Shown one piece after another: positions 1,906 to 62,883 of a stretch of 64,000 nt of DNA. This stretch comes from an uncultured Candidatus Saccharibacteria bacterium. Lineage in GTDB: Bacteria; Patescibacteriota; CPR2_A; CAYFQT01. The notes beneath the pieces are model-generated. The model searched no databases and was not told the DNA's origin. It saw only the letters and a program-made list of their open reading frames with translations. Position 1 is the first letter of the stretch. Every line of letters begins with the position of its first letter. Location: contig CAYFQT010000038.1 of assembly GCA_964345445.1 (NCBI GenBank), positions 30,893 to 94,892 of the forward strand. The letters are read 5' to 3'. Position numbers and translations under genes: made by a program.

Positions 1906-3516
1906 ATGGTTTCAAAATCAAAAGATATAAAGAAGGAAGTAGTTCTATATCGGAAATGGAGACCTCAGTTTTTTTCTGAGATTATTGCTCAAAATCATAT
2001 TAAAAAAACATTGCAAAATGCTATAATTAAAAATCGTATTTCCCATGCTTATATTTTTTGTGGTCCTCGAGGAACAGGTAAAACATCAGTAGCTCGCCTT
2101 TTAGCTAAAGCAGTTAATTGCACAAATTCTAAGTCAGGAGAGCCATGTAATGAATGTAAAACTTGTTCTGAAACTTCTTCTGGTAGAAGCTTAGATCTTA
2201 TTGAAATTGATGGTGCATCAAATAGGGGGATTGATGAAATTAGAGAATTAAGGGAGAAAATTAGATTCAGTCCTTCTTCTGCTTTATATAAAGTTTTTAT
2301 TATTGATGAAGTTCATATGTTAACTCGCGAAGCTTTTAATGCTTTACTTAAAACTTTAGAAGAACCACCAGAGCATGCTATTTTTATTTTGGTAACTACT
2401 GAAGTACATAAGATCCCTCCCACTGTTCTTTCTCGTTGTCAAAGATTTGATTTTGAAAGAATTTCTATAAAAGATTTAATAAATAGGTTATATTTTATAG
2501 CCAGTAAAGAAAATTTAAATGTAGATAAAAGGGTTTTACAACTTATTGCCCAAAATGCTGAGGGAGGATTACGAGATGCTATTTCTCTTTTAGATCAATT
2601 AGTATCTTATGGAGGGAAGAATATAAATTTAGATCAAATTAGATCAGTTTTAGGCCTTGCTGATATAAAAACCTTGGAAAAGTTAATGGATTTGTTAATT
2701 AAAAAAGATACTACACATGCTATCAAACTTGTAAATGATGTTTTTTCTAAAGGTTATGATCTTCATCAATTTGCAAAAGGAATGATTGAATATTTAAGGA
2801 GTATTTTGATTGTTAAATTAAACCAAGATAATAAAATATTACAGGTATCTCCTGAACAATTTAAGAAAATAATTTCTCAATCAAAAGAAATTAAACTAGA
2901 TGAAGTTTTGTATTTAATAAAATTATTTATTAAAGCAGAAAAAGATTTAAAATCTGCTACTTTTCCTCAATTACCTTTAGAATTAGTATTAGTTGAAGCA
3001 AACAAAGGTAGTTCGAATATTTCTCAAGAAGATATTTCCCCGCCCGACGGCTTTTCTTCCGACAAGATGGGCAAGGCAGGGGGCACGGACAGAGATGTGC
3101 CTATGGCGCAAAAAATAAAGGCAAAAAACAAACCAGCAGATGAAATTAATTCTAAAAAAGATAATATTGACATAAAGAAATTTTTAGATCTTTGGGAGGA
3201 AGTTCTAGAGGAAGTAAAATATTATAATCATTCTGTTCGAGCTTTCCTGAAAGCTTCTCGCCCTGTAGCTATAAAAGACGATGAAATTACTTTAGAATTT
3301 TTCTATCCCTTTCATAAAGAACGGATTGAGGATGATAAGAACCTTTCCTTGGTAGAAAAAGCTGTTTTTAAAGTAACTAAAAAGTCTTATAAGATTCACT
3401 GTATTTTAAGTGATAAAAATATTTCAGGATTTCAAAAGACTCAAAAAAATGATGGTAATGAAGATGGTGGTTTATTTCAAAATGCCCAGAAAATTTTCAA
3501 AGATCAGACAGAATAA
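1906..3516 (+). CDS. dnaX: DNA polymerase III subunit gamma/tau
   Basis: GPRGTGKTS Walker A, IIDEVHML, SRCQRFDF clamp-loader motifs. Confidence 0.9.
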   Translation: MVSKSKDIKKEVVLYRKWRPQFFSEIIAQNHIKKTLQNAIIKNRISHAYIFCGPRGTGKTSVARLLAKAVNCTNSKSGEPCNECKTCSETSSGRSLDLIEIDGASNRGIDEIRELREKIRFSPSSALYKVFIIDEVHMLTREAFNALLKTLEEPPEHAIFILVTTEVHKIPPTVLSRCQRFDFERISIKDLINRLYFIASKENLNVDKRVLQLIAQNAEGGLRDAISLLDQLVSYGGKNINLDQIRSVLGLADIKTLEKLMDLLIKKDTTHAIKLVNDVFSKGYDLHQFAKGMIEYLRSILIVKLNQDNKILQVSPEQFKKIISQSKEIKLDEVLYLIKLFIKAEKDLKSATFPQLPLELVLVEANKGSSNISQEDISPPDGFSSDKMGKAGGTDRDVPMAQKIKAKNKPADEINSKKDNIDIKKFLDLWEEVLEEVKYYNHSVRAFLKASRPVAIKDDEITLEFFYPFHKERIEDDKNLSLVEKAVFKVTKKSYKIHCILSDKNISGFQKTQKNDGNEDGGLFQNAQKIFKDQTE

Positions 3517-8862: not shown

Positions 8863-9594
8863 ATGGATGATATCTATCTTTCAGTGATTATTCCAGCCTA
8901 CAATGAAGAGGAACGTATTGGACAAACTTTGGATCTAGTTTGTAAATATTTAAAAAAACAAAATTTTCCTTCAGAAATTATTGTAGTAAATGATGGAAGT
9001 AAAGATAATACTTTAGATGTAATAAAGGGGAAACGATGTTTAGCTTATTTTCAAATCATTTCTTATTCTATAAACCGAGGCAAAGGTTATGCAATAAGGT
9101 CGGGAGTTAAAAAAGCTCAAGGTAAATATATTCTATTTGCTGATGCGGATAATTCTACTCCTTTTGAGCAAATTAAGAAATTACAAGCGAAGATTAGAAA
9201 TGATTGTGATATTGTTATAGGCTCTCGTTATATATCTGGTGGAGAGATCAAAAAAAAACAAAATGTAATAAGAAGATTTATTAGTCGAGGAGGAAATTTA
9301 TTATTTTGGTTAATTTTAGGACTTAGATTTAAAGACACCCGCTGTGGTTTTAAATTGTTTAAAAGTAAGATAGCTAAACATCTTTTTTCTTTGCAGAAAT
9401 TAGAAAGATGGGGATTTGATACAGAAATTTTGGTTTTAGCTTGTAAATACAAATATAGGGTAGCAGAAGTCCCGGTGATTTGGTATGATAAAACCAGAAG
9501 TCAAATTAATCCTTTCAGTGATTCTTTAAGATCCTTTTGTGAAATATTTCAGATTAAGTGGAATATGATAAGAGGGAAATACAATAAAAATTAA
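8863..9594 (+). CDS. second GT2 polyprenyl-phosphate glycosyltransferase (paralog of 5998..6786)
   Basis: VIIPAYNEEERI, ADADNS. The ORF track starts at 8851, but the Met at 8863 (MDDIYLS) aligns with the paralog. Confidence 0.85.
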   Translation: MDDIYLSVIIPAYNEEERIGQTLDLVCKYLKKQNFPSEIIVVNDGSKDNTLDVIKGKRCLAYFQIISYSINRGKGYAIRSGVKKAQGKYILFADADNSTPFEQIKKLQAKIRNDCDIVIGSRYISGGEIKKKQNVIRRFISRGGNLLFWLILGLRFKDTRCGFKLFKSKIAKHLFSLQKLERWGFDTEILVLACKYKYRVAEVPVIWYDKTRSQINPFSDSLRSFCEIFQIKWNMIRGKYNKN

Positions 9595-34665: not shown

Positions 34666-36051
34666 ATGGTTAAAGATTCTAAATATTATCATATGGTGGG
34701 AATAAAAGGGGTAGGGATGTCTGCCTTGGCTCAAATTTTAAAATCCCAAGGCGTAAGATTAACCGGTTCTGATGTAAATGAAGTTTTTTTTACTGATAAA
34801 ATTTTAAAAGATTTAAAAATTCCTGTTTTCTCGGGATTTAAAGCAGAAAATATAGGAAAACCTGATTTAGTAATATCTTCAGCTGCCTATGGTAAGGATA
34901 ATCCAGAAATTACTGAGGCTAAAAGAAAAGGTGTTAAAGTTCTCTCGTACCCTCAAATGTTAGGGGAGTTGACAAAGGATAAAAAGAATGTTGCTATCTG
35001 TGGCACCCATGGCAAGACAACAACAACAGCTTTAGCTGGTTTATTATTGGAGAAAGCTAAATTTGATCCCACTGTTGTTGTTGGAAGTTATGTTGATGAT
35101 TTTTCAGGGAATGCTCGGATAGGGAAAAGTAATTGGTTTGTGATTGAGGCTTGTGAATATATGCGACATTTCCTAAATTATAATCCTTATATTGTAATTT
35201 TAACATCGCTTGAGATGGATCATCCTGATTATTATAAAAATATTGATGATATAAAAAGAGCTTTTAGTCAATTTGTAAATAAATTATCCCAAGATGGACT
35301 TTTAGTTTATTGTGGCGATGATAAAAATGCCAGCGAGGTATCCCAAAGAGCAAGATGCCCAACTTTATCTTATGGATTTTCTGATAAAGTGAATGTTCAA
35401 GCCAAGAATATTAATACCAAAGAGAAAAATATTAATTTTAATGTTATATCATCAGGTGAAAAAATAGGAAAATTTAGTTTACAAATTCCAGGTGAGCACA
35501 ATGTATTAAATTCTTTGGCAATAATTGCTTTGGGGTTAAAGCTAGATATTAATAAAAAAATTATAAGTCAAACTTTGGCTTCTTATTCTGGGATTAAAAG
35601 AAGGTTTGAGACAATAGGAGAAGTAAATAATATTAAGGTTATTGATGATTACGCTCATCATCCTTCTGAGATTAAAGCAACTCTGGCGGGAGCAAGGAAA
35701 TTTTATCCCAAAAATAGAATTTGGGTCGTCTTCCAACCACATACTTTTTCTCGCACAAAAGAATTACTTTCTGAATTTAGCCAAAGTTTTGCAGATTCTG
35801 ATTATGTTATAATAGCTGATATTTTTTCATCAGCTCGCGAGAAAGATACTGGCAGCATTCATTCTAAAGATATTGTAGCCGGAGCTCAAAAATATCATAA
35901 AAGTGTGCAATATATAGGTGATCTTTCTGATATAGAAGATTATCTAAAAGACAAACTTCAGGAAGGGAATGTTTTAATCACCATGGGCGCAGGTAGCATA
36001 TATAAAGTAGGGGAGGGGTTGTTGAAGAAATTAAGAGGTAAAAGATATTAG
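34666..36051 (+). CDS. murC: UDP-N-acetylmuramate--L-alanine ligase
   Basis: MVGIKGVGMSALA N-terminus, GTHGKTTTTAL. Confidence 0.9.
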   Translation: MVKDSKYYHMVGIKGVGMSALAQILKSQGVRLTGSDVNEVFFTDKILKDLKIPVFSGFKAENIGKPDLVISSAAYGKDNPEITEAKRKGVKVLSYPQMLGELTKDKKNVAICGTHGKTTTTALAGLLLEKAKFDPTVVVGSYVDDFSGNARIGKSNWFVIEACEYMRHFLNYNPYIVILTSLEMDHPDYYKNIDDIKRAFSQFVNKLSQDGLLVYCGDDKNASEVSQRARCPTLSYGFSDKVNVQAKNINTKEKNINFNVISSGEKIGKFSLQIPGEHNVLNSLAIIALGLKLDINKKIISQTLASYSGIKRRFETIGEVNNIKVIDDYAHHPSEIKATLAGARKFYPKNRIWVVFQPHTFSRTKELLSEFSQSFADSDYVIIADIFSSAREKDTGSIHSKDIVAGAQKYHKSVQYIGDLSDIEDYLKDKLQEGNVLITMGAGSIYKVGEGLLKKLRGKRY

Positions 36052-36102
36052 TTAGTTTGTAAGTTACTAAGGTGCTAAGTTAGTAAGGTAGTAAAGATTT
36101 GT

Positions 36103-37011
36103 ATGAATAAATATGAAAAATTTAAAAATGAGTTGGGAAAGCCGGTTTTGGAGAAGGAGAAGTTAGCCGGTTATACTGCATTTAAAATTGGTGGGCCGGC
36201 GGATTTGTTTTTCAAAGCCACAAATAACAATGATTTAGTAAAAGCAGTAAAATTGGCTATAAAATATAAAATTCCTTATATAGTCTTAGGGCAGGGGAGT
36301 AATGTTTTAATTTCTGATTCTGGATTTCGGGGTTTGATAATTAAAAATAGTTGCCAAGATTTTAGAATAGAAAATAATAAAATTATCGCCTCATCTGGCG
36401 CTAAACTCTTTAATATTGTGCGACATTGCGCAGAAAAGAATTTAGGAGGGATAGAATTTTTGGCCAATATCCCAGGAACAATAGGTGGGGCAGTATATGG
36501 AAATGCTGGAAGTTACAGGAAAGATAATAAAAAATCTATTGCTGATGTATTAATTGAAGCAAAGATATTAAGGAAAGACGGTAAAATTAAAAAAGTAAAA
36601 AAAGATTATTTTGATTTTGACTATCGTAAAAGTAAGCTTATGGAGACTAAAGAATTGGTAATTGAGATTACTTTAGAATGTGAAGGAAGAGATAAAGATG
36701 AAGTTTTACATTTGATTAAAGAAGATATTAATAAAAGAATTAAAAAATATCCTTCATATCCTTTTCCTGGAAGTTTTTTCAAAAACCCTTCTGGCAAATA
36801 TGCTGGACAATTAATAGATGAAGCCGGTCTTGTAGGAAAAAAAATAGGTGGGGCAATGGTGTCACATGAGCATGGTAATTTTATAGTGAATACAGGTGGA
36901 GCAAAAGCTGCTGATATAAAAAAATTAGCCCGGAAGATAAAAAAAGAAGTTTATGATAAATTTGGAATAAAATTAGAAGAAGAAATTCAATATATTGGAG
37001 AGTTTAAATAA
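36103..37011 (+). CDS. murB: UDP-N-acetylenolpyruvoylglucosamine reductase
   Basis: FKIGGPADLF FAD-binding region, 302 aa. Confidence 0.9.
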   Translation: MNKYEKFKNELGKPVLEKEKLAGYTAFKIGGPADLFFKATNNNDLVKAVKLAIKYKIPYIVLGQGSNVLISDSGFRGLIIKNSCQDFRIENNKIIASSGAKLFNIVRHCAEKNLGGIEFLANIPGTIGGAVYGNAGSYRKDNKKSIADVLIEAKILRKDGKIKKVKKDYFDFDYRKSKLMETKELVIEITLECEGRDKDEVLHLIKEDINKRIKKYPSYPFPGSFFKNPSGKYAGQLIDEAGLVGKKIGGAMVSHEHGNFIVNTGGAKAADIKKLARKIKKEVYDKFGIKLEEEIQYIGEFK

Positions 37012-37044
37012 AAGGAGTATATTATAATAGAAAGAAAGGAAATT

Positions 37045-37884
37045 ATGTTATTTAGAGATTCTAGCCTAAGAAGAAAAAAAAGGATTACAAAAACAAGACA
37101 TCATCCTAAAATTTATGCTAAAAGTTATAGAAGACCTCGCACTCCGAAATCTTTTTTTTCTTTTAAAAAAATTATCATTTTGTTCTTTTTAGGAGCTTTA
37201 TTTTCTGGATTAGTATATTTTATTTTTCTTTCTGGAATTTTCCAAGTTAAAAATATTATTTTAATAAATAATCGTTCAATTATTTTAGAAGAAGTGGAAA
37301 GAACATTAAATCCTATTTATAAAAAGAAATTATTAAATTTAGAATTTAATAATATTTTATTTTTTAAAAGCAGAGAGGCTAAAAATTTGCTTTTGGAGAA
37401 TTATCCTCGTTTAAGTTCTGTTGAAATTAAAAGGAAATTTCCTGATACATTAGAGATTAAAGTCCAAGAGAGAGAAGGGATTATTGTTTGGGATATAGGT
37501 GATAAGAAATATTTGATAGATGAAGAGGGTATTGCTTTTTCTGAATGCTTAGGAGAAAGTAATCTGCCAAATATTACAGATAGTAAAAAACTACCAGTTG
37601 ATTTGAATTCTCAAGTTGTAAATAGTGATTTTGTAAATTTTATTTTACAACTTTCAGAAAAACTACCTAAAGAAGATATATTTATTGGCTCTATTGTTGT
37701 TCCAGAATCAATTTATGATATTGAAATAGAAACTAAAAAAGGTTTTAAAATTTTTTTTGACATTAGAAGAAGTATAGATTCTCAAATTAATAAACTTAGA
37801 ACATTATTAGAGAAAATTGGGGATGAGGTAAATTATATTCAATATATTGATTTGAGAATTGAAAATAAAGTCTTTTATAAATAA
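37045..37884 (+). CDS. ftsQ: cell-division protein FtsQ/DivIB-like
   Basis: Basic N-terminus, single TM, POTRA-like region, in the dcw position after murB. Confidence 0.7.
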   Translation: MLFRDSSLRRKKRITKTRHHPKIYAKSYRRPRTPKSFFSFKKIIILFFLGALFSGLVYFIFLSGIFQVKNIILINNRSIILEEVERTLNPIYKKKLLNLEFNNILFFKSREAKNLLLENYPRLSSVEIKRKFPDTLEIKVQEREGIIVWDIGDKKYLIDEEGIAFSECLGESNLPNITDSKKLPVDLNSQVVNSDFVNFILQLSEKLPKEDIFIGSIVVPESIYDIEIETKKGFKIFFDIRRSIDSQINKLRTLLEKIGDEVNYIQYIDLRIENKVFYK

Positions 37885-37946
37885 AGAGTATCATAAGTGT
37901 CATCGGATATACCTTTGATACTTATTTATAAAGGAGGCATATTAAT

Positions 37947-38288
37947 ATGTGGTGGGCAATTTTAGGATTTGCTTTAGGAATAATTATAGGATTGTTTTTT
38001 ACTTTTTCTATTCCTATACAATATGCTCGATATACAGCAGTAGCTATATTAGCTGCTTTAGATTCTATTTTAGGGGCAGCAAAAGCAGACCTAGAAAATA
38101 GATATTCCAGTCAAATTTTTATCACTGGATTAATATTTAATATGGTTTTGGCAGCTGGAATTACTTTCTTAGGAGATAAATTAGGTTTAGATTTGTATAT
38201 TGCTGTGGTTGTAGCATTTACATTTAGAATGCTTTTGAATATTGGCAAAATCCGCCGTCATATTTTAGAGAGATTTAGAAAGAGATAA
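37947..38288 (+). CDS. sbp: small basic protein Sbp (DUF1290)
   Basis: IP..Y..Y...LAALD...G.....FN..LA..FLG..LG.DLY....F..R...NI..IRR pattern matches B. subtilis Sbp, which sits between divIB and ftsA. Confidence 0.7.
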   Translation: MWWAILGFALGIIIGLFFTFSIPIQYARYTAVAILAALDSILGAAKADLENRYSSQIFITGLIFNMVLAAGITFLGDKLGLDLYIAVVVAFTFRMLLNIGKIRRHILERFRKR

Positions 38289-38325
38289 AAAATAATTTGT
38301 ATTTTAAAATTTTTATATTGATAGT

Positions 38326-38414
38326 ATAGTTTTGCGAAGTAATGAAGAAGTAATGAAGGAGTACATAAGTATTATTAATTTTGAATGTTCTTTTAATTTA
38401 CTTCGCAAAACTAT
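38326..38414. repeat. 17-bp perfect inverted repeat (ATAGTTTTGCGAAGTAA / TTACTTCGCAAAACTAT) around a 55-nt loop
   Basis: The loop itself contains the direct repeat GAAGTAATGAAG x2. Confidence 0.7.
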
Positions 38415-38448
38415 CATTGTCCGACATATTTTCAAATGTAAAATAACA

Positions 38449-38478
38449 CCAGCAGAACCCCTTCCCTGCTGGTTTTTT
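38449..38478 (+). terminator. Rho-independent terminator closing the dcw operon
   Basis: CCAGCAG-AACCCCTTCC-CTGCTGG followed by TTTTTT. Confidence 0.6.
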
Positions 38479-38741
38479 ACACTAATTAAATATATTTTAT
38501 CTTAGAATTACTCTGATAAAATAATAAGACTTTTAGTAATAGAGTTTGCCAAAATTGGTGACTTTTTTAAAAAAAATTAAATTCTATCCCCTATTATGAT
38601 GAAACTTAGTATTTTTTTACTCCAGATCTCTATATTGCTGTTATATTGCTGTAGTGAGGGATTTTAATATAGTTCAGCAATAGCAATAATGTAGATTATT
38701 GAAGTGAAGGTGTTTGATTTTTAAAAAAATAATAAAAGATT

Positions 38742-39188
38742 TTAGTAGTTCACTTCCCTATCTTTCATAATCTTTCCGAAAGTCTCTTTTATTTCTTCAA
38801 AATGTTTTTCTTTTTCTTCCTTAGAATCATTTACACTATCTTTATAAAAATATACCAAAGCCAGACTTTCAGGATTGGAAGTTTCTCCTCCAAAATCTTC
38901 TGCTTTGCCGATTTCTAAAATATGATTTCCAAATTCTATCATATCTGCTTCGTGGTCAGATAGTTCTGTTATTTCATCTTGTTCAAATAATTCCATTTTT
39001 TCTATAATTTCTTCTGATTGCCAATCTACCTCTTGATTTTTTTCATAAGCCAAAGCGGAGATGAATTTCTTCAGTTCCTCAACTTCTCCTTTAATAATAA
39101 TTCTATTAAATTGTTCATCAATTTCTGGTTCTATTTCTATTTCTTCAGTTGGGTCATATTCAGAAGTAGATCCTAAATCCCCAAGCAT
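38742..39188 (-). CDS. highly acidic hypothetical protein (possible DNA-mimic-like)
   Basis: 148 aa, about 30% D/E, downstream (same strand) of the coupling-protein-like ATPase. Confidence 0.45.
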   Translation of the reverse strand: MLGDLGSTSEYDPTEEIEIEPEIDEQFNRIIIKGEVEELKKFISALAYEKNQEVDWQSEEIIEKMELFEQDEITELSDHEADMIEFGNHILEIGKAEDFGGETSNPESLALVYFYKDSVNDSKEEKEKHFEEIKETFGKIMKDREVNY

Positions 39189-39278
39189 TTTTTCCTCTCT
39201 TATTGAAGCCTAATTACATAGACTTCTCCTTTTTCGATAAAATACTTAAAGCATTTTATCAAGTAAAATGATTTAAAA

Positions 39279-39314
39279 AGCAGCTTCAATACATAAAAAG
39301 CTGCTCATTTTTTG
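39279..39314. terminator. bidirectional hairpin terminator
   Basis: AGCAGCTT-CAATACATAAA-AAGCTGCT with T-runs on both strands. Confidence 0.45.
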
Positions 39315-39629
39315 AGTTTTTTGTATAATTTTAATTTTTTTAGAAATTTTATTTTTGTTTTCATTTTTGTATAACGCAGATTAACACTGATATTATAATG
39401 TAGATTATTTTGACGCTGATTTACGCGGATATATATTATAATCGCTGAGTGCCGATTAATCGGCAGGCCCGACTGCAACGCTATGCTTGCATTAGCGGGC
39501 AGGCTACATCTTCAACATCTTGAACAAGTGAGCGGAGCGAACAATATAGCAATTTGAACATTTTATAATTATTTGTGTTTAATTTGTGCATTAAATTCGT
39601 GTTTAATTTGAGAAAGATTCCTGCTTTTT

Positions 39630-42482
39630 TCAACCAGAGTCTGATCTTCCTTTGGACGAAATTTTTACCTCTTCTCCTTCTTTCAACTCATGTGTTTTAC
39701 TTTTTTCTTTTTGTTCTTTTTCTTCAGTTACTGAGTTTTGGGTCTTTTCTTTTGAAGATGAAAGAGTATCAGAAGGTTCTGTGGGTTTATGTGATATCTT
39801 AATTTCTTCTTTTTCTTTTATTGGCCTATGATGTATTATAGAAGGCTTTGCTTCTTTTTTTTCTTCAGCTATTTCTTCTTGAGGTTTTTCTTTTACTTTT
39901 ATACCTTCTTCTTGAGTAACTTCTTCTAAAATATCTTCTGCAGTTATTCTTACCTCTGGGTATTTTTCTACTCTAATAGTTTCTCTGGGTCTTTTTTCTT
40001 TAAATTTCTGAGGTTGAGTTTCTTCTTCGTTTTCCTCTTCTGTTTCTTCTATCCCTGCCCAACGAGCAATTTTTTCTTCTACTACATTTTTTGGGGTGCT
40101 ATATCTTTCTTGTGATAAAAGAATAACCTTTTCTTTATTTTTATTTTCCCCTTTGAGTGGAGGTAAAGTTTGAGCAGAAAAAGCAGGAGAAGTTACCCCA
40201 TTAATAGCAAGTTTTAAATAAATATTATATTTATCCAAATTTACTATATCAGTTTCATCAAAGACTGGGGCTACTTCTTTGGCTAAGAATGTTGCATCTG
40301 CTGCGCCTACTCTAAAGGAAATTAATGTTCCAATATTGCCAAAAACAGCATCACGAACTACTTCAGGCATTTGGGCTATATATTGGTTAGCTACTATTAA
40401 ATTTAATCCATATTTTCTTGCTTCAGATAATATTTTGGCAAATGATTCAGTAGCAAAGTTTTGAAACTCATCAACATATAGATAAAAATCTTTTCTCTGT
40501 TTTTCTGGGATGTCTACTCGACTCATAGCTGCTAACTGGAGTTTAGTAATCATCATTGCTCCTAAAAGAGAAGAATTGTCTTCCCCTATAGTTCCTTGAG
40601 CTAATTTGATTAATAATATTTTTCCTGAATCAATAACTTCTCGCATATCGATAGTGCTTTTAGGCTGCCCTATAATGTTTCTTATTGTTGCCGAAGATAT
40701 AAACTGCCCTACTTTGTTTTGAATTGGAGAAATTGCTTCTGTTACTAAACGAGGATTTGATTGATATCCAGGAAACTCTTGAGTCCAAAATCTTTTTACT
40801 TCTATATCGGTAATTTTCTTAACCACTTTTTTTCTAAATTTTTTATCAGTAAGCATTCGATTTACTGATAACATTGTAGAATTAGGATAATCTAACAAAG
40901 CTAATAAAGTATTTCTTAAAATATGTTCTAATCTAGGACCCCAGGTGAAAGCCCAGATTTTTTGAAAAATGGAAATTAATCCTGAACATATCAACCCTTT
41001 ATAGTCAGGGTCCACAGCTTCTAGTGGATTGAAAGCAATAGGATATTCTCGATCAGAAGGATCAAAGATAATTACATCATTTATTCTTTCAGAGGGAATG
41101 AAATTTAATATATCGTCAATTAGGTCTCCATGAGGGTCCACTACTCCTACTCCTTTTCCTGCTCGGATATCAGAAATAGCCATATTTCTCAACATATTAG
41201 TCTTGCCCATCCCAGTTTTACCAATTAAATACATATGTTTTCTTCTGTCATCAGTTTTTATTCCAAATTTTTGTCTTATATGTCTAAAGTTTGTCTCGGC
41301 AAATAAAGTTAGTTCGCTAGATGGAATAACTTTTTCTTCAATTGGTAAGTTATCAGGAGGTTCTCCTTTTTTAGATTTTGTCCAAGCGATTGTGGGAGTT
41401 TCTACTCCTATAGTTGGAAGATGAAATATTGAAGCTAATTCTTCAGTATTTAAAACAAAGCCAGAGTCGGAAAACAAACGTGCTTTATAGTCTTGAAGAA
41501 AATTTTCACCTTCATAAGTTTTGTCTGATTTGAAACCATTTAGGTTAGCGGTTGAAAATTGTTTAAATGTTCCAATAAGAGATTGAAGATGAGGATTTAC
41601 AATTTGTCCTTTCTTGCAAACATATGCTGCTCTTATTTTTGTATCAAAACCAAGTTTGGATACTTTTTCCTCAATAGCCGAAAGCTGAGTCTCTTGAGCA
41701 GATGAGAGTTGAGGAGGTCCGGAGGCACTTTCTTCAGTGGTTCCTGGTGTAATCAAAGAAGTAATTTGTCCTAAAACTTTAGCTAAAAATCCAAAAGCTG
41801 TTCCTATGCCAAAAGCTTCTGGGTTTCCACCAGCTTTTACTATGTCTATATAAGAAAGACCTTTTTTTTGCCATTCTTCCCCTGAAGGACGAACGAGTAT
41901 TTGAATCCAAATTTGTTCATTATTTTCTTTTAATTTTCCTAAAACCCCAGTGATTCCTGCCAGAGGATCTACTTCGAAATCAGGAAAGGTTTTAATAGGA
42001 AAAAAATCTAATTTGTTTAAGAGAAGTTGAGTGCCCATAATTTGTTTTTCTTTTAAATCAATCTCAGTGTAATCAGGTACTTTTTCAATTTCTACTTCAG
42101 GATATTGGGCATAAATTTGTCCTTCCACAAAATCTCTTAGATGTTCTGGAACCCAAATAAAAAATCCAATTTTTCCATTTGTTGAAGCAATTTCAAAACT
42201 AATGTGTTCTTGTAATGTTCCTTCCAGAAATCTTTTTTTAGTAGGTTTATAAATTCCATGTAGAGAAGCAAACATCATTTCTGCTGCAGTAGGTCCTTTT
42301 TCATTTTCTTTTGGAATATACAAAGATAAAAGAACGTATTTTTGTTGAGAAACCCAGTTTAATTTTCTACGGCTTAAAAAAGACAAAAATAAAAGTAGAG
42401 GTACTAGAAACCATATACCCCAAAATAAAAATTTACCAGTTTGTGGTAATATTTGGCTTAAAATTTTAAATAAGCCTTCCAT
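39630..42482 (-). CDS. membrane-anchored P-loop NTPase of the type IV coupling protein (TraD/TraG/VirD4; FtsK-HerA superfamily) type, with long Glu/Lys-rich C-terminal tail
   Basis: N-terminal TM (FLFWGIWFLVPLLLFLSFL), Walker A GKTGMGKT, Walker B YLYVDEFQNF about 240 aa later, ANQYIAQ block, 220-aa low-complexity EK-rich tail. Confidence 0.7.
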   Translation of the reverse strand: MEGLFKILSQILPQTGKFLFWGIWFLVPLLLFLSFLSRRKLNWVSQQKYVLLSLYIPKENEKGPTAAEMMFASLHGIYKPTKKRFLEGTLQEHISFEIASTNGKIGFFIWVPEHLRDFVEGQIYAQYPEVEIEKVPDYTEIDLKEKQIMGTQLLLNKLDFFPIKTFPDFEVDPLAGITGVLGKLKENNEQIWIQILVRPSGEEWQKKGLSYIDIVKAGGNPEAFGIGTAFGFLAKVLGQITSLITPGTTEESASGPPQLSSAQETQLSAIEEKVSKLGFDTKIRAAYVCKKGQIVNPHLQSLIGTFKQFSTANLNGFKSDKTYEGENFLQDYKARLFSDSGFVLNTEELASIFHLPTIGVETPTIAWTKSKKGEPPDNLPIEEKVIPSSELTLFAETNFRHIRQKFGIKTDDRRKHMYLIGKTGMGKTNMLRNMAISDIRAGKGVGVVDPHGDLIDDILNFIPSERINDVIIFDPSDREYPIAFNPLEAVDPDYKGLICSGLISIFQKIWAFTWGPRLEHILRNTLLALLDYPNSTMLSVNRMLTDKKFRKKVVKKITDIEVKRFWTQEFPGYQSNPRLVTEAISPIQNKVGQFISSATIRNIIGQPKSTIDMREVIDSGKILLIKLAQGTIGEDNSSLLGAMMITKLQLAAMSRVDIPEKQRKDFYLYVDEFQNFATESFAKILSEARKYGLNLIVANQYIAQMPEVVRDAVFGNIGTLISFRVGAADATFLAKEVAPVFDETDIVNLDKYNIYLKLAINGVTSPAFSAQTLPPLKGENKNKEKVILLSQERYSTPKNVVEEKIARWAGIEETEEENEEETQPQKFKEKRPRETIRVEKYPEVRITAEDILEEVTQEEGIKVKEKPQEEIAEEKKEAKPSIIHHRPIKEKEEIKISHKPTEPSDTLSSSKEKTQNSVTEEKEQKEKSKTHELKEGEEVKISSKGRSDSG

Positions 42483-57134: not shown

Positions 57135-57545
57135 TTACTCTTTTTCAGTCTCTTCCTCAGATTTGCTGGCGGAATTCAGAATGCTTTCTATTCTTTCTAC
57201 CACTTCTTCTAAAGAATGTTCTGACTTTATCATATAATCAGCCGCTCCTTCTTCTAGCCCCTTCATTACTTCATCCATCTCTGAGAGATTAGATAGAATT
57301 AAAACTGGGATAGAAGATGTTTGAGATTTTTCTTTTAATTTTTTTAAAACTTCTCGTCCATTTAATTTAGGAAGTAAAATATCCAACAAAATAATATCTG
57401 GTTTTTCAATATCAACCATTTTGATACCTTCCCTCCCATCTAAAGCTATTGCCACATCATATCCTTCTCTTTGTAGTTTATTCTGATAAATCTTATTCAA
57501 AGCAGTATCATCTTCTATTATTAGAATTTTAGATTTATTGTTCAT
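57135..57545 (-). CDS. stand-alone response-regulator receiver (CheY-like)
   Basis: ILIIEDD, phospho-acceptor D in ILLDILLP, 136 aa, no output domain. Confidence 0.8.
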   Translation of the reverse strand: MNNKSKILIIEDDTALNKIYQNKLQREGYDVAIALDGREGIKMVDIEKPDIILLDILLPKLNGREVLKKLKEKSQTSSIPVLILSNLSEMDEVMKGLEEGAADYMIKSEHSLEEVVERIESILNSASKSEEETEKE

Positions 57546-57665
57546 TTTAACCTCCTGAGGTCTCTGTTATCCATTCATTACAGAGGCCGAGGCCCTATCG
57601 GAACCGGAGGTGGATGATAGGGCATTATTATTTTATTACTTAATAATAAGTGTTTGATGGGACTT
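57546..57665 (-). ncRNA. conserved two-hairpin 5' leader, copy L1
   Basis: More than 85% identical to L2 at 59878-60003. Hairpin 1 is GCCCTATC..(16-nt loop)..GATAGGGC, hairpin 2 is GGCCTCTGT..ACAGAGACC, then GGAGG SD. The hairpin-1 loop CCACCTCC is complementary to the SD. Confidence 0.55.
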
Positions 57666-57712: not shown

Positions 57713-59320
57713 TTAAAACCCAGTTAATTTCACATGAGCAATATTATCACAGTGATCGCCGATTCTTTCTAAATTGCGAGTTACATCTATAAAAATTATT
57801 CCTGCTTGGGGATGACAAATTCTTGCTTTTAATCTTTTTAGGTGATGATTTCGTAATTTTCTTTCCAATTGATCAACTTTTCCTTCTTGATCTAATATGT
57901 AAGTAGCTAGTTTAATATTTTTTCTTTTAAGAATTTTAACTACATTGCTATACATTTTTTTCACTTCATCAAACATTTCTATGAGCTCTTTTTGAGCTTT
58001 GTCAGAAAAAGGAACTTTTTTTTCTATTTTTACCTTTCCTAATTCAGCAATATTATTTCCATGATCAGCTATTCTTTCAATATCAGAAATAGAGTGCATC
58101 AGCCCAGCTAGTTTTTGGGATTCTTTTTTAGTTAGAGGTTTTTCGGAGAGTTTAATTAAATAATTTCTAATTTTTCTATATAAATCATCTATTGCTTCTT
58201 CTTGTCTGATTGCTGGTTGAAAAAAAGTAATATCATCTGACATTAATACTTTATAACTATTTGAAAGCAATTGAGAAGCCATATGTGCCATTCTATGAGT
58301 TTCTTTAGTTGCTTGGGATAGAGCCAGTGAGGGAAGATTTAAAACTCTTTTGTCTAGATATTTTACGCCCCTATCAATTTTTATTTCTTTACCAGGGATT
58401 ATTTTTTCTACTATTTTAACTAAAATTGGTATAAAGGGTAATAAGATTAGAGTAGTTGTTATATTGAACACAGTATGAGCATTAGCTATTTGTCTAGCTA
58501 AACCAGCTGAGGTTTTTAACATAATTTGGGTAAAAATTGGTAAAAAAAGAAAAAAGATTATCACTCCTATAATATTGAATAAAAGATGAACAATTGCTGC
58601 TCGCCTAGCTTGTAGATAGGAGCCAATTGAGGCTAAGATTACTGTTATACAAGTACCGATATTAGCTCCTAGGATTAGAGAAATTGCTGCTTTTAAATCT
58701 ATAATATTTGCCATCCCCATAGCAATAACTAAACCAGAGGTAGCGCTTGAGCTTTGGATAATTCCAGTAAATAAAGCTCCTGCTAATATTCCTAAAATTG
58801 GTATTTGACTAAAGTTAGTTAGAAGATTGGTAAAAAATGGTGCACCTCTTAAGGGTTTTATGCCACTGGTCATAAAATTCATTCCTACAAATAAAATACC
58901 CAACCCCAAAAGCATTTCCCCAATATATTTATTAGTTCTTTTTTTACTCAGGAAGAATAGGAGAAAACCTATAACTAAAATAAGTAAAGCATAATAATTA
59001 ATTTTAAAGGCAACAAGTTGGGCAGTAATTGTTGTTCCAATATTAGCCCCCATTATTACTCCTATAGCTTGTTGAAGGTTGACTAAACCAGCATTTAAAA
59101 ATCCTAAAAGTATTACTGTTGTCGCACTTGAGCTTTGAATGATGGCAGTAATAACAGCCCCTATTGAAACTCCTACAAAAGGATTATTAGTTATTTTTTC
59201 TAGTGTTTTTCTGATTTTATCGCTAGCTATTTTCTGCAGTCCTCCACCCATCAAGATCATGCCATATATAAAAAGAGCTAATCCTCCCCCTACTTCAAAA
59301 ATTATTTCTTTTACTGGCAT
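57713..59320 (-). CDS. Na+/phosphate cotransporter (NptA family) fused to PhoU-like domains
   Basis: N-terminal Na/Pi-cotransporter repeats (QSSSATT x2) plus two C-terminal PhoU-like helical repeats. Confidence 0.85.
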   Translation of the reverse strand: MPVKEIIFEVGGGLALFIYGMILMGGGLQKIASDKIRKTLEKITNNPFVGVSIGAVITAIIQSSSATTVILLGFLNAGLVNLQQAIGVIMGANIGTTITAQLVAFKINYYALLILVIGFLLFFLSKKRTNKYIGEMLLGLGILFVGMNFMTSGIKPLRGAPFFTNLLTNFSQIPILGILAGALFTGIIQSSSATSGLVIAMGMANIIDLKAAISLILGANIGTCITVILASIGSYLQARRAAIVHLLFNIIGVIIFFLFLPIFTQIMLKTSAGLARQIANAHTVFNITTTLILLPFIPILVKIVEKIIPGKEIKIDRGVKYLDKRVLNLPSLALSQATKETHRMAHMASQLLSNSYKVLMSDDITFFQPAIRQEEAIDDLYRKIRNYLIKLSEKPLTKKESQKLAGLMHSISDIERIADHGNNIAELGKVKIEKKVPFSDKAQKELIEMFDEVKKMYSNVVKILKRKNIKLATYILDQEGKVDQLERKLRNHHLKRLKARICHPQAGIIFIDVTRNLERIGDHCDNIAHVKLTGF

Positions 59321-59589: not shown

Positions 59590-59877
59590 TCATTCCACCA
59601 CTTTATAAACTATATCATGTTCTCGAGCATGTTCTTTGACTTTCAAACCGATAGCATCACCTTTTTTAGCCTCTTTGACATCTTCATGCTCAATCTGCAT
59701 TGATTCTACTTTTTGAGTAAAGTCAGAAGTAGCTCCTTTAATATGGACATTATCTCCTACTTTTAAAGTATCAGAAAGTTCAACAATAGCTACTCCTATT
59801 TTATTAAAATAGTGGGTTACTTTACCGACTTCTTTCTCTTCCTTTTCTTTTTTTTCTTCTTTTTTTTCTTCAGCCAT
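59590..59877 (-). CDS. small EF-Tu-domain-2-like beta-barrel protein with Lys/Glu-rich N-terminus
   Basis: 95 aa; G.V.....L...L.VGD...I.G.......V.S.Q......V..A..GD.IG pattern. Confidence 0.4.
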   Translation of the reverse strand: MAEEKKEEKKEKEEKEVGKVTHYFNKIGVAIVELSDTLKVGDNVHIKGATSDFTQKVESMQIEHEDVKEAKKGDAIGLKVKEHAREHDIVYKVVE

Positions 59878-60003
59878 TTTTTAACCTCCCGAGGTCTCTG
59901 TTTACCCATTCATTACAGAGACCGAGGCCCTATCGAAACTGGAAGTGAATGATAGGGCATTATTATTTGTTATTATTATCCTTAATAATTAGTGGATGAT
60001 GGG
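59878..60003 (-). ncRNA. conserved two-hairpin 5' leader, copy L2
   Basis: Same architecture as L1: GCCCTATC/GATAGGGC and GGTCTCTGT/ACAGAGACC stems; loop CACTTCC pairs with the SD GGGAGGT. Confidence 0.55.
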
Positions 60004-60090: not shown

Positions 60091-60462
60091 TTATCCTAAT
60101 ATTTCTTTTATTCTTTTTAATATTTGAGGAATAGTGGATTCGGATTTAACAAAAAAGTCTTCAATTTCATAACTTTGGCATTTTTCTTTGGTTTCTCTAT
60201 CACTTAAAACAGTAAGAATAACTATAGGAATAGATTCTGTTTTTGGTGTTTTTTTTAAAATGTCTAATACACTAAGTCCGTCAATTTCTGGAAGCATTAT
60301 ATCTAATAGAATTAGATCTGGTTTTTCGTCTACTGCTTTGGCTAAGGCTTCTTGACCATTTGAAGCTTGAATTACTTTATACCCTTCATTTTTTAAATTT
60401 AGCGCATATAGTTCTTGCAATGGTTTGTCATCTTCTACTAATAATATTTTTTTTTCTATCAT
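60091..60462 (-). CDS. stand-alone response-regulator receiver (CheY-like)
   Basis: ILLVEDD, LILLDIMLP, 123 aa. Confidence 0.8.
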   Translation of the reverse strand: MIEKKILLVEDDKPLQELYALNLKNEGYKVIQASNGQEALAKAVDEKPDLILLDIMLPEIDGLSVLDILKKTPKTESIPIVILTVLSDRETKEKCQSYEIEDFFVKSESTIPQILKRIKEILG

Positions 60463-60779
60463 TTAAATCTCCAGAGAAATAGATAATAATTACTAATTAA
60501 ATTTTACCATTCTAATTGAATAATTACAATAAAAAATATAATAATAGATTATTTAATTATAATTCATTTAATTTTTCTAAAACAGGCAAAGAGATATCAA
60601 TTAGGTCTTTAGTGTCGCTTCTGTTTAATTCTGCTAAGCTACCTTTTGGTTTACAAAGAAATAAAAGTTCTATTATAGCTCTATAAAGTTCTGGAGTTAT
60701 GATTTTGTTGTCTTTTAATTCCTCAGCTATATTTATTGGATCTCTTTCTTTAGATTGAGGTAATTTTTTATTTTGTATT

Positions 60780-61136
60780 TCACCTAATCTTTGGGTAATT
60801 TTTTTTTCTTATTATTCCCACAGTCAAACAAACATCTCCTTTAGTTTGTTTTTTAAGCTCTTCTTTTTGAGCTTCTGCCTTTTTTTCGTCTTTTATTTTC
60901 ATTTTTTCTACCGAGTCTTTTGCCTTTTTCAAACTTCTTTTAAATTCAAATAAATAACTAATTTTCCCACTTTGTAAACTGGGCAAAATGGAAATGAAAA
61001 ACAAAAGAACGATTAAAAATAAAGAATATTTATCCAAGTTGATTGTATCAGGATAAAATAGATTTAAAATTAAAATTGCTAAAATTAATAATGTATAAAA
61101 ATAAATAAATCTAATTTTTTTCAAAAAACTAATCAT
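60780..61136 (-). CDS. hypothetical 2-TM membrane protein; reading frame possibly continues to 60557 after a -1 shift at an A9 tract
   Basis: 118-aa ORF ends 25 nt after an A9 homopolymer (60799-60807 on plus as T9). The -1 frame stays open for about 83 more codons. Confidence 0.4.
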   Translation of the reverse strand: MISFLKKIRFIYFYTLLILAILILNLFYPDTINLDKYSLFLIVLLFFISILPSLQSGKISYLFEFKRSLKKAKDSVEKMKIKDEKKAEAQKEELKKQTKGDVCLTVGIIRKKNYPKIR

Positions 61137-61188
61137 AATTTCCCCTATTAAATTTTGATTTTTTAACTTTGAATTTTAAACTTTTATA

Positions 61189-62883
61189 TTACCATCCACT
61201 TCCTCCTCCTCCACCAAATCCGCCGCCGGAGAATCCGCCTCCTCCAAATCCACTTCCTCCAGAAGGTGCAGATCTAAAAGTACTTCCTATACCTTTGGAC
61301 ATACCATTTAGAGAGCTAGCAAAACGACTGGCTGAAAAAGCACCAACATAACTTCCTGAATACCAATCAGGAGGAGTTTTGTAGATATCTTTAAATTTTC
61401 CAGCCCAAATCTCAGCCACACCAAAAACCATTGCATAGGGCAGAAGTTTTTCAAATATCTTTTCTTTTTCGGCAAATTCCATTCTATATCTTTCAGCAGT
61501 TTTAATATATTCTTTCAAACCCAAGGCATGTTCATATGCCAAAGTTCCTGCTTTAGTCCGTCTGGGCATAAAGAAAGAAAAAATAATAATTATCAAAGCA
61601 GAAATCCACATAGATATCACAGCAGTAAAACTGAAAATATTCGCTATAAAAAATATAAAGACAAAGCCCAAAATACCAAAAGCTATACCTACTCCTAAAT
61701 AAATACCTCTTATTTTATCAGGACTAATTTTAAAATAGTTAAGTAATACTACCTCTTGATAAAGATATTTTTTAATTTTGGGCAAGTGAGTATAAAATTT
61801 TTCTTTCAAATCAGAAAGTTTACTTTCATCTTTAGAATAGCCAAAAACCCCTCTTAAAATTTCTTTTTCATGTTCTTTTAAAGATTTATCATCCTTAAAT
61901 TCTTTATTTTTAATAAATTTATAGTCTTTGCCTTTAAAAATTAATCCCTTGCCTTCAATCTCCTCAATTTTTAAATATCCTCTCACTGCTAAATCAATTA
62001 CTGTCGCTGAAATATCTTTCATATCTGCTCTTTGATCAATTAGAATCCCTAACTCCCCGGCTGTTATATTGTCTGGAGGTTCATATTGGGCAATAATGGT
62101 TTTTCTCCCCTCAGGTTCTCTGCCTCTGGTCCACCAGAGATAAAACAAAACAAAAAATACTAAAAAGGGAATAGCCACAGCCCAGTTATCTTGAGAAAAC
62201 CAGAAGATTTGTTGAGATGTAGAAGGTTTTTGGACAATTTCTTTTGGCCAGCCGGCAACAATTGTCAAATATACCGTTGATTGATAATCTATTTGTCCAT
62301 CTTTGATTTCATAGGTTAAATCTTGGCTTTTTGAACCATATTCTCCTGTATATCCTTCTGCTTGCAATTTGTCTTTGGGAATATTTTCCGGAAAATAAAC
62401 AGTAGCTGAGCAATTTTCAATAGGCATATCCAATTGAGTTCCTGTAACATTCCAATATAATTCATCATGATCAGAAAAATAATTTATAGCTCTTTGTACT
62501 TTATAGGTGATTACATAAGTATTAAGTCCAGAAATTGTCACATCTGGATCACCTATTTTGATTTTTATATTTCTTCCAGACCTGGAAGTCTCATATTTCC
62601 ATTCTTTTCCATTCTCGTCAGTTATGGAAATTAATTCAAATTTCAATTTTAAATTATTTCCATATTTATCTTTGTATTTAAGGGGGATTTCCCGGTTTAT
62701 TCCGTGCTTGCCATGTGGAACATCAACTTCTATTTTTTCTTTGATATCAATTGAAGCATCTTTATTTATAGTAATATCAGAATGAAAATTCTCAATTACA
62801 AACTCTGACTGCGCCCAAGCAAAAATATAGAGAACAAAAACTAATATTACTGTTCCAAAAATTAATCCAATTTTCTTTTTCAT
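61189..62883 (-). CDS. DUF2207-family membrane protein with C-terminal Gly-rich tail
   Basis: Signal/TM, about 230-aa extracytoplasmic domain, 3-4 TM helices, tail GSGFGGGGFSGGGFGGGGGSGW. Confidence 0.7.
   Translation of the reverse strand: MKKKIGLIFGTVILVFVLYIFAWAQSEFVIENFHSDITINKDASIDIKEKIEVDVPHGKHGINREIPLKYKDKYGNNLKLKFELISITDENGKEWKYETSRSGRNIKIKIGDPDVTISGLNTYVITYKVQRAINYFSDHDELYWNVTGTQLDMPIENCSATVYFPENIPKDKLQAEGYTGEYGSKSQDLTYEIKDGQIDYQSTVYLTIVAGWPKEIVQKPSTSQQIFWFSQDNWAVAIPFLVFFVLFYLWWTRGREPEGRKTIIAQYEPPDNITAGELGILIDQRADMKDISATVIDLAVRGYLKIEEIEGKGLIFKGKDYKFIKNKEFKDDKSLKEHEKEILRGVFGYSKDESKLSDLKEKFYTHLPKIKKYLYQEVVLLNYFKISPDKIRGIYLGVGIAFGILGFVFIFFIANIFSFTAVISMWISALIIIIFSFFMPRRTKAGTLAYEHALGLKEYIKTAERYRMEFAEKEKIFEKLLPYAMVFGVAEIWAGKFKDIYKTPPDWYSGSYVGAFSASRFASSLNGMSKGIGSTFRSAPSGGSGFGGGGFSGGGFGGGGGSGW

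Follow-up and report, generated by a model that had tools for sequence, protein, structure and literature searches.

On the minus strand of the window (the whole 64-kb stretch of DNA that was analysed), a short ORF for a membrane protein runs into a homopolymer of nine A's and ends shortly after it, and a second open frame continues from the same homopolymer. The following features were assigned at this junction.

60557..61136, minus strand: the whole interrupted gene, 580 nt as sequenced; the version with eight A's would be 579 nt, encoding 192 aa followed by a stop
61141..61145, minus strand: a Shine-Dalgarno-like GGGGA, 5 nt 5' of the ATG of the 118-aa ORF, from direct reading of the sequence
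60780..61136, minus strand: the 118-aa ORF as encoded in the DNA, from the ATG at 61136 to the TGA at 60782-60780
60799..60807, minus strand: the A9 homopolymer (T9 on the plus strand) that forms the frame junction, one A above the in-frame length of 8
60557..60808, minus strand: the +1-frame open stretch of 83 sense codons and a TAA at 60559-60557, without a usable start codon

Reading frames and surroundings of the A9 tract

The TGA of the 118-aa ORF is located 16 nt past the last A of the A9 tract, or 25 nt from its first A. The C-terminus of the ORF reads ...GIIRKKNYPKIR, and its last six residues, NYPKIR, are out-of-frame. The +1 stretch starts at 60808, right behind two in-frame TAA codons (TAA TAA), and its translation is EKKITQRLGEIQ...LEKLNEL. 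The sole ATG, GTG or TTG codon in this stretch is a TTG at 60589-60587, ten codons before the stop, and reading of the sequence before the stretch revealed no Shine-Dalgarno-like element comparable to the GGGGA of the 118-aa ORF. The two frames overlap in such a way that a productive shift is confined to only 29 nt, most of which is the A tract itself. No RNA element was found around the junction with Rfam, and a scan for promoters and terminators gave nothing informative between the two halves.

The original prediction had described the A9 tract (T9) at 60799-60807, the 118-aa ORF and an open frame down to 60557, and these coordinates were confirmed. The TGA had been placed 25 nt after the tract, which holds when counted from the first A, and the extension of about 83 codons does indeed lack a start codon of its own, the TTG close to its end being the sole candidate. 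The open frame had been called the -1 frame, and this had to be corrected: it is the +1 frame (offset 1 to offset 2), and the -1 frame of the 118-aa ORF reads ...RKKKLPKD and stops after four further codons. Simulation of different tract lengths gave a fused protein for A8 (192 aa) and A11 (193 aa), the dead frame ending in ...LPKD for A7 (116 aa) and A10 (117 aa), and products of 118 and 119 aa for A9 and A12. The claim that a change of a single A would fuse the two halves is therefore valid for the loss of one A, which gives A8, and fails for the gain of one A, which gives A10.

The GC content of the 64-kb window is about 30%. A/T runs of exactly seven were present 97 times, runs of exactly eight 35 times and runs of exactly nine three times, and there were no runs of ten or more. 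Base composition alone predicts about six A/T runs of at least nine in the window, compared to the three observed, and the sharp cut-off of long A/T runs suggests selection against slippage-prone tracts of nine or more in this genome. Stop-to-stop intervals of at least 82 codons amounted to 1.05% of all intervals, compared to about 12 per shuffled window, and open stretches of at least this length were roughly 7-fold rarer in shuffled sequence. The coincidence of an A9 tract with a long start-less frame is more than chance. When the whole window was scanned for ORFs on the same strand that abut in different frames, only at the A9 junction did a homopolymer coincide with a downstream frame lacking a start; no gene is broken by any of the other 135 A/T runs of at least seven. 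Both further A9 runs keep the frame, one at 9250-9258 in a glycosyltransferase-like gene and one at 60447-60455 in a response-regulator gene. With a sole broken pair in 64 kb and two other A9 runs in frame, there is no general homopolymer-indel problem.

The neighbours of the gene in the window encode a DUF2207 membrane protein, a single-domain response regulator and a Na/Pi cotransporter, and provided no clue to its function. The upstream DUF2207 protein (564 aa, 61189-62883, minus strand) has a glycine-rich tail, ...SAPSGGSGFGGGGFSGGGFGGGGGSGW, and 52 nt separate the stop of its gene from the ATG of the frameshifted one. A DUF5652 gene neighbours the gene of the closest orthologue, P0001, and no conserved gene neighbourhood was found across four homologous loci.

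Several other features were observed in the window. A G+C-rich leader of about 90 nt occurs on the minus strand in two copies of about 86% identity, at 59878-59965 and 57546-57632, directly upstream of a 95-aa EF-Tu-domain-2-like ORF (59590..59877) and of a response regulator (57135..57545), respectively. Each leader is predicted to fold into two hairpins, the second of which pairs CCUC with the GGAGG Shine-Dalgarno sequence (MFE -27.6 and -25.9 kcal/mol; z -3.35 and -2.0). The leader matched no Rfam family and was present in two copies only within the window. Judged from the predicted folds, it is a candidate cis-regulatory RNA that may act by sequestering the Shine-Dalgarno sequence. The cumulative GC skew peaks at about 36000-39600, and gene orientation changes from all plus at 1-38 kb to all minus at 39.6-64 kb; both fit a replication terminus with co-oriented genes, or simply a purine bias of the coding strand. 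A 950-aa protein with a weak TraD/coupling-protein-like match is encoded right after the orientation switch (39630..42482). The window also encodes DnaX, PBP2, CysRS and GlyRS, which mark it as bacterial; a place in the candidate phyla radiation is suggested by the presence of the gene family in a CPR3 genome and by a DUF5652 neighbour.

Relatives of the gene and state of its downstream half

The two open frames were found to descend from a single gene. P0001, an uninterrupted protein of 196 aa encoded on a contig of assembly GCA_020062965.1, showed 84-86% identity to the conceptually fused 192-aa query at 100% coverage. An exhaustive HMMER search with P0001 yielded five more full-length relatives, P0003-P0007, which are 182-212 aa long, 30-40% identical and align from end to end; one of these, OQX51103.1, belongs to candidate division CPR3 bacterium 4484_211. 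Both parts are contained in a single ORF in six of six full-length relatives and not in the window gene, and wherever a homologue has the C-terminal domain, its ORF also includes the N-terminal module. P0002, the exact 118-aa product, has been called on three public contigs. The halves had been predicted to form one membrane-anchored protein of roughly 200 aa, and the uninterrupted orthologue and the homologues agree with this, at a length of about 192 aa. A comparison with orthologues had been proposed as a check; it revealed the fused gene in P0001 and P0003-P0007, which do not end at the position of the 118-aa ORF and in which the downstream frame is conserved.

A profile of the family aligned with frame 0 at positions 1-117 (E = 6e-46) and with the +1 frame at positions 116-199 (E = 1.2e-28), a clean tiling in which nothing is lost. 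In the alignment, the junction falls within the conserved motif D-x-CLTxGxIRxxIxxxL. The motifs of the C-terminal family domain of about 100 aa, CLTxGxIRxxI ... EAIxxVLxLCxP ... PVLExL, are all present in the window, but in the +1 frame. The DNA of P0001 at this site is AGA AAA AGA ATT (RKRI), AGAAAAAGAATT, eight positions with an interrupting G, and that of the window is AGAAAAAAAAATT, which differs from P0001 by one G-to-A change and exactly one added base. In L001, L004, L005 and L006, the corresponding codons do not form a homopolymer, and the tract is specific to the lineage of the window. No A8 variant of this strain was found in a collection of 5.8 billion proteins; two scans of genome contigs gave no locus, and a scan of metagenome contigs returned only the contig already known. 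Taken together, the two ORFs are almost certainly one gene of a conserved family, split by one surplus A within an A9 tract that is specific to this lineage.

The state of the downstream half was assessed by codon comparison with P0001 after deletion of one A, using the Nei-Gojobori method. A dN/dS of 0.122 was obtained for the 109 codons before the tract and of 0.118 for the 80 codons after the tract; dS was about 0.6 in both parts (approximately 0.61 on both sides of the tract). The family-conserved C-terminal residues L140, I146, A153, C161 and L189 are all kept. As a rough Poisson bound, any period in which the tail was not under selection covers at most about 16% of the branch of this lineage. 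Such an intact and constrained tail implies that the frameshift is recent, or not real, or compensated during expression. A recent mutation, an artefact and long-term rescue by slippage are equally compatible with a dN/dS that is the same before and after the tract.

Architecture of the protein

The fused protein belongs to a small, uncharacterised family that combines two transmembrane helices (2TM) with a HEPN-like domain and is seen mainly in bacteria of the candidate-phyla-radiation type. Its parts are two transmembrane helices, the conserved helix SGKISYLFEFKR and, at the C-terminus, a domain of HEPN fold, arranged as follows.

61056..61112, minus strand: predicted transmembrane helix 1, residues ~9-27 (Kyte-Doolittle; AlphaFold2 helix 2-27 of P0001)
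60975..61028, minus strand: predicted transmembrane helix 2, residues ~37-54 (Kyte-Doolittle; AlphaFold2 helix 36-54 of P0001)
60918..60971, minus strand: juxtamembrane helix SGKISYLFEFKRSLKKAK, residues 56-73, the most conserved motif of the family in the alignment
60560..60887, minus strand: five-helix C-terminal HEPN-fold (divergent DUF4145) domain, residues ~84-192

Kyte-Doolittle means over 19 residues exceeded 1.6 around residues 13-25 and 40-50 (centre positions). Behind this hydrophobic helix pair, the juxtamembrane motif of the family, SGK-x-SY-x-FEFKR, is present, and in the alignment R67 is invariant and F65 and L69 are nearly invariant. A Lys/Glu-rich linker separates the juxtamembrane helix from the C-terminal domain, which is probably cytoplasmic according to the positive-inside pattern. 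The AlphaFold2 model of P0001 has a pLDDT of 82 and a pTM of 0.65; past position 82, where P0001 has a four-residue insertion, the residue numbers of the model are those of the window plus four. The frameshift cuts the second helix of the C-terminal domain, a confidently predicted helix covering residues 106-128 of the model. Due to this position of the break, the 118-aa product, which comprises the membrane module and about a quarter of the HEPN-like domain, is without a folded C-terminal domain.

The extension had been proposed to be HTH-like. No match to an HTH family was obtained, and the C-terminal domain is instead a helical bundle of HEPN fold related to DUF4145 (PF13643, Pfam clan CL0291), all-alpha and matching HEPN proteins in its fold. 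The fused protein and its close relatives had no Pfam match, none of them reaching the DUF4145 gathering score, and scans of the fused protein against Pfam, NCBIfam and PADLOC gave nothing above threshold. Two distant relatives, P0014 and P0021, score above the DUF4145 cut-off of 23.1 bits (24.3 and 27.1 bits, respectively), and P0021 was matched to the family profile with an hhalign probability of 99.3%. DUF4145 and MtlR are families of the HEPN superfamily, and the endoRNase motif Rx4-6H is conserved in about 80% of DUF4145 (Anantharaman et al. 2013, PMC3710099). At the position of this motif the window protein has LCKPKGS, with neither R nor H, compared to ICNRAVH in P0021. The window protein and its close relatives differ from DUF4145/MtlR-type HEPN domains in scoring below the Pfam threshold and in having C-x4-S/other at the Rx4-6H site. 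As the motif is absent from the sequence, the C-terminal domain is probably non-catalytic, and RNase activity would not be expected. A further difference from the HEPN superfamily is that no conserved defence-type gene neighbourhood was found around the window family.

Weak matches to SLATT, DUF1003 and SSRP1-PH were regarded as noise. The SLATT matches concern the 2TM module (60975-61112, residues ~9-54) and are sub-threshold, with 16.9 bits for NF033631 (cut-off 60) and an E-value of about 0.002 for the PADLOC model RTasSLATT; they were not reproduced in orthologues and are at most a lead.

Short stand-alone proteins (P0008-P0012 and P0015, 76-161 aa) were found to contain only the 2TM module and the SGK..Y..E.KR helix. 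Loci of such short homologues are L007/L008 at 3001-3255, L009 at 265-510, L010 at 260-505 and L011 at 142-429, and no frame in their vicinity encodes a HEPN-like domain. P0008, P0011 and P0012 were considered as frameshifted full-length genes, and this was ruled out, the C-terminal domain being encoded in no frame. The occurrence of stand-alone 2TM proteins indicates that the N-terminal module is an autonomous unit in these other genomes. Given such natural proteins with the N-terminal module only, the truncated product of the window gene could be functional and even selected.

Origin of the extra A and expression of the gene

An identical A9 tract is present in contig JABAOH010047380.1 (6,072 bp) of assembly GCA_012974985.1, which shows 0 SNPs relative to the window across about 5.9 kb, N gaps being the sole difference. 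For this contig, Illumina HiSeq 4000 reads from deep marine sediments (Gulf of Khambhat and Arabian Sea) had been pooled and assembled with the CLC Genomics Workbench assembler (PMC8319310). It is another assembly of the same strain, possibly from the same reads, and is a weak corroboration of the A9 tract. The Na/Pi cotransporter-PhoU gene, which is intact in the window (57713-59320, 535 aa), is split in this contig (L002, 2255-3600) into calls of 70, 80 and 87 aa. The split is an assembly artefact, caused by scaffold gaps whose N filling falls short of the real sequence length.

The extra A is probably a genuine and recent insertion, from A8 to A9, with full-length protein restored only in a leaky manner by polymerase slippage. 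The ancestral gene encoded a protein of about 192 aa with two transmembrane helices, the juxtamembrane helix and the C-terminal HEPN-fold domain. An AGA-to-AAA (Arg-to-Lys) change would have merged A5 and A2 into A8 in this lineage, and a slipped-strand insertion of one A would then have given A9 and an encoded product of 118 aa. Full-length protein would from then on be made only from the minority of transcripts that have slipped to A8 or A11, or in cells with a reverted tract. Bacterial RNA polymerase slips efficiently in vivo on nine A or T (Atkins et al. 2016, PMC5009743); the A9 tract has this length, so some A8/A11 transcripts, and hence some full-length protein, may be expected. An intact A8 or AAAAAGAA in sister strains would fit a recent lesion.

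A sequencing or assembly artefact, with A8 and an uninterrupted gene for 192 aa in the actual genome, is considered unlikely. Homopolymers are the classic place of indel miscalls, the downstream frame is perfectly intact and constrained like the upstream part, and the two agreeing assemblies may share reads, being from one strain. However, consensus errors at 9-mers are uncommon in Illumina HiSeq 4000 assemblies, one of which has the same A9, and the remaining long A/T runs of the window, including both other A9 runs, leave their genes unbroken. It is similarly improbable that the locus is phase-variable, with replication slippage as a reversible switch between a membrane protein of full length (A8) and a truncated one (A9). 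A membrane protein with an intragenic homopolymer at the upper extreme of the lengths in this genome (three runs of nine, none longer), whose OFF allele keeps an undecayed downstream frame, could be suited to such switching, but the tract is missing in the closest orthologue and in the other family members, and A9 is short for a dedicated contingency tract. Furthermore, public data contain no A8 allele, three of three contigs with the gene giving the 118-aa product, and the domain that would vary is predicted to be cytoplasmic and not surface-exposed. The chance is also small that transcriptional slippage provides two products, the 118-aa form as the standard and the full-length form from A8/A11 transcripts, both of which are used. 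The tract reaches the length for efficient slippage of RNA polymerase (PMC5009743), a precedent is found in tssM1 of Citrobacter rodentium, where A11 precedes a premature stop and both variants are required (PMC4256274), and AT-rich reduced genomes keep such frameshifts (PMC3017870). The stand-alone occurrence of the N-terminal module in other genomes and the purifying selection on the downstream frame are in line with this as well. Against it, the arrangement is not conserved even at 84% identity, and the commonest slippage product (one added A, A10) is dead, leaving only the rarer -1 or +2 events to rescue the frame. It is doubtful that the A9 tract is a working device that gives by default a 2TM-only protein of 118 aa, similar to the natural stand-alone proteins of other genomes, while slippage, either of RNA polymerase or by reversible replication, supplies a set fraction of full-length protein, with both forms in use. 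If this were true, the full-length fraction would tether the HEPN-like domain to the membrane, and the locus would be the first example of recoding or of a phase switch in bacteria of the candidate-phyla-radiation type and for a HEPN-family protein.

It is highly improbable that the A run is a site of programmed ribosomal frameshifting (+1 or -2). Poly-A is slippery for tRNA-Lys and the short productive overlap is mostly tract, but the -1 slip on A AAA AAA, which is the common and efficient one, enters a frame that ends after four codons, the shift site has no stop or rare codon and no upstream Shine-Dalgarno-like element, and the site is not conserved among orthologues. In comparison with dnaX-type -1 sites, the -1 frame of the window is dead and does not lead into an extended frame, and the stop or Shine-Dalgarno context of prfB-type +1 sites is lacking. 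A programmed site had been among the original suggestions; neither the nearest orthologue nor any other of the examined family members has the tract, and with a lineage-specific tract an evolved programmed frameshift is unlikely. Two separate genes, with the C-terminal domain translated alone from a non-canonical start, are equally hard to reconcile with the observations. An ATT is found directly past the tract in the +1 frame and might serve as such a start, but ATG, GTG and TTG are absent until ten codons before the stop, and no suitably spaced Shine-Dalgarno sequence is present, in contrast to neighbouring genes, which are preceded by GGAG or GGGGA at 5-7 nt. Moreover, the homologues of the C-terminal domain all have the N-terminal module in the same ORF, and the break bisects a helix.

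The window shares a run of at least about nine A/T at the junction with programmed transcriptional slippage sites such as those of Thermus thermophilus dnaX, Shigella spa13, C. rodentium tssM1 and IS elements; conservation of the arrangement was sought here and was not found. T. thermophilus dnaX has the same run of nine, which supports efficient slippage of RNA polymerase (PMC5009743). In dnaX the DNA-encoded frame is the long one, slippage gives the short product and the arrangement is fixed in an essential gene, whereas in the window the DNA-encoded frame is short. C. rodentium tssM1 and Yersinia tssM (PMC4256274) likewise encode a membrane protein with a premature stop after poly-A and the C-terminal domain in another frame, and truncated and full-length forms are possible in tssM1 as in the window. 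However, tssM1 has A11, is rescued by added A's, requires both forms and recurs in Yersinia, while the window has A9, for which the most frequent product, with one added A, is unproductive, and the arrangement is not conserved. The poly-A frameshifts of Buchnera and Blochmannia (PMC3017870; cited in PMC5009743) are also found in AT-rich genomes, as single indels in poly-A of at least nine in genes that are otherwise intact and constrained, and are subject to the same ambiguity between recent erosion and slippage-corrected expression. They differ in that some of them are conserved across populations and species and that mixed mRNA pools have been demonstrated, whereas the tract and the frameshift of the window are confined to one strain.

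The A9 junction is an ordinary homopolymer frameshift, and nothing about it challenges current understanding. For annotation, it means that the locus should be described as one frameshifted gene of a conserved unnamed family, rather than as non-coding DNA preceded by a hypothetical protein of 118 aa; the family combines 2TM with an inactive HEPN/DUF4145-like domain. The HEPN catalogue is modestly extended by such a membrane-tethered family of HEPN fold that lacks the catalytic motif. The locus contains one of the longest homopolymers of a genome that is AT-rich and probably reduced. Provided that the extra A is real, the gene would show gene erosion at its first step, or be a case of leaky, slippage-dependent expression, a phenomenon that is well documented in insect endosymbionts and little examined in uncultivated sediment bacteria.
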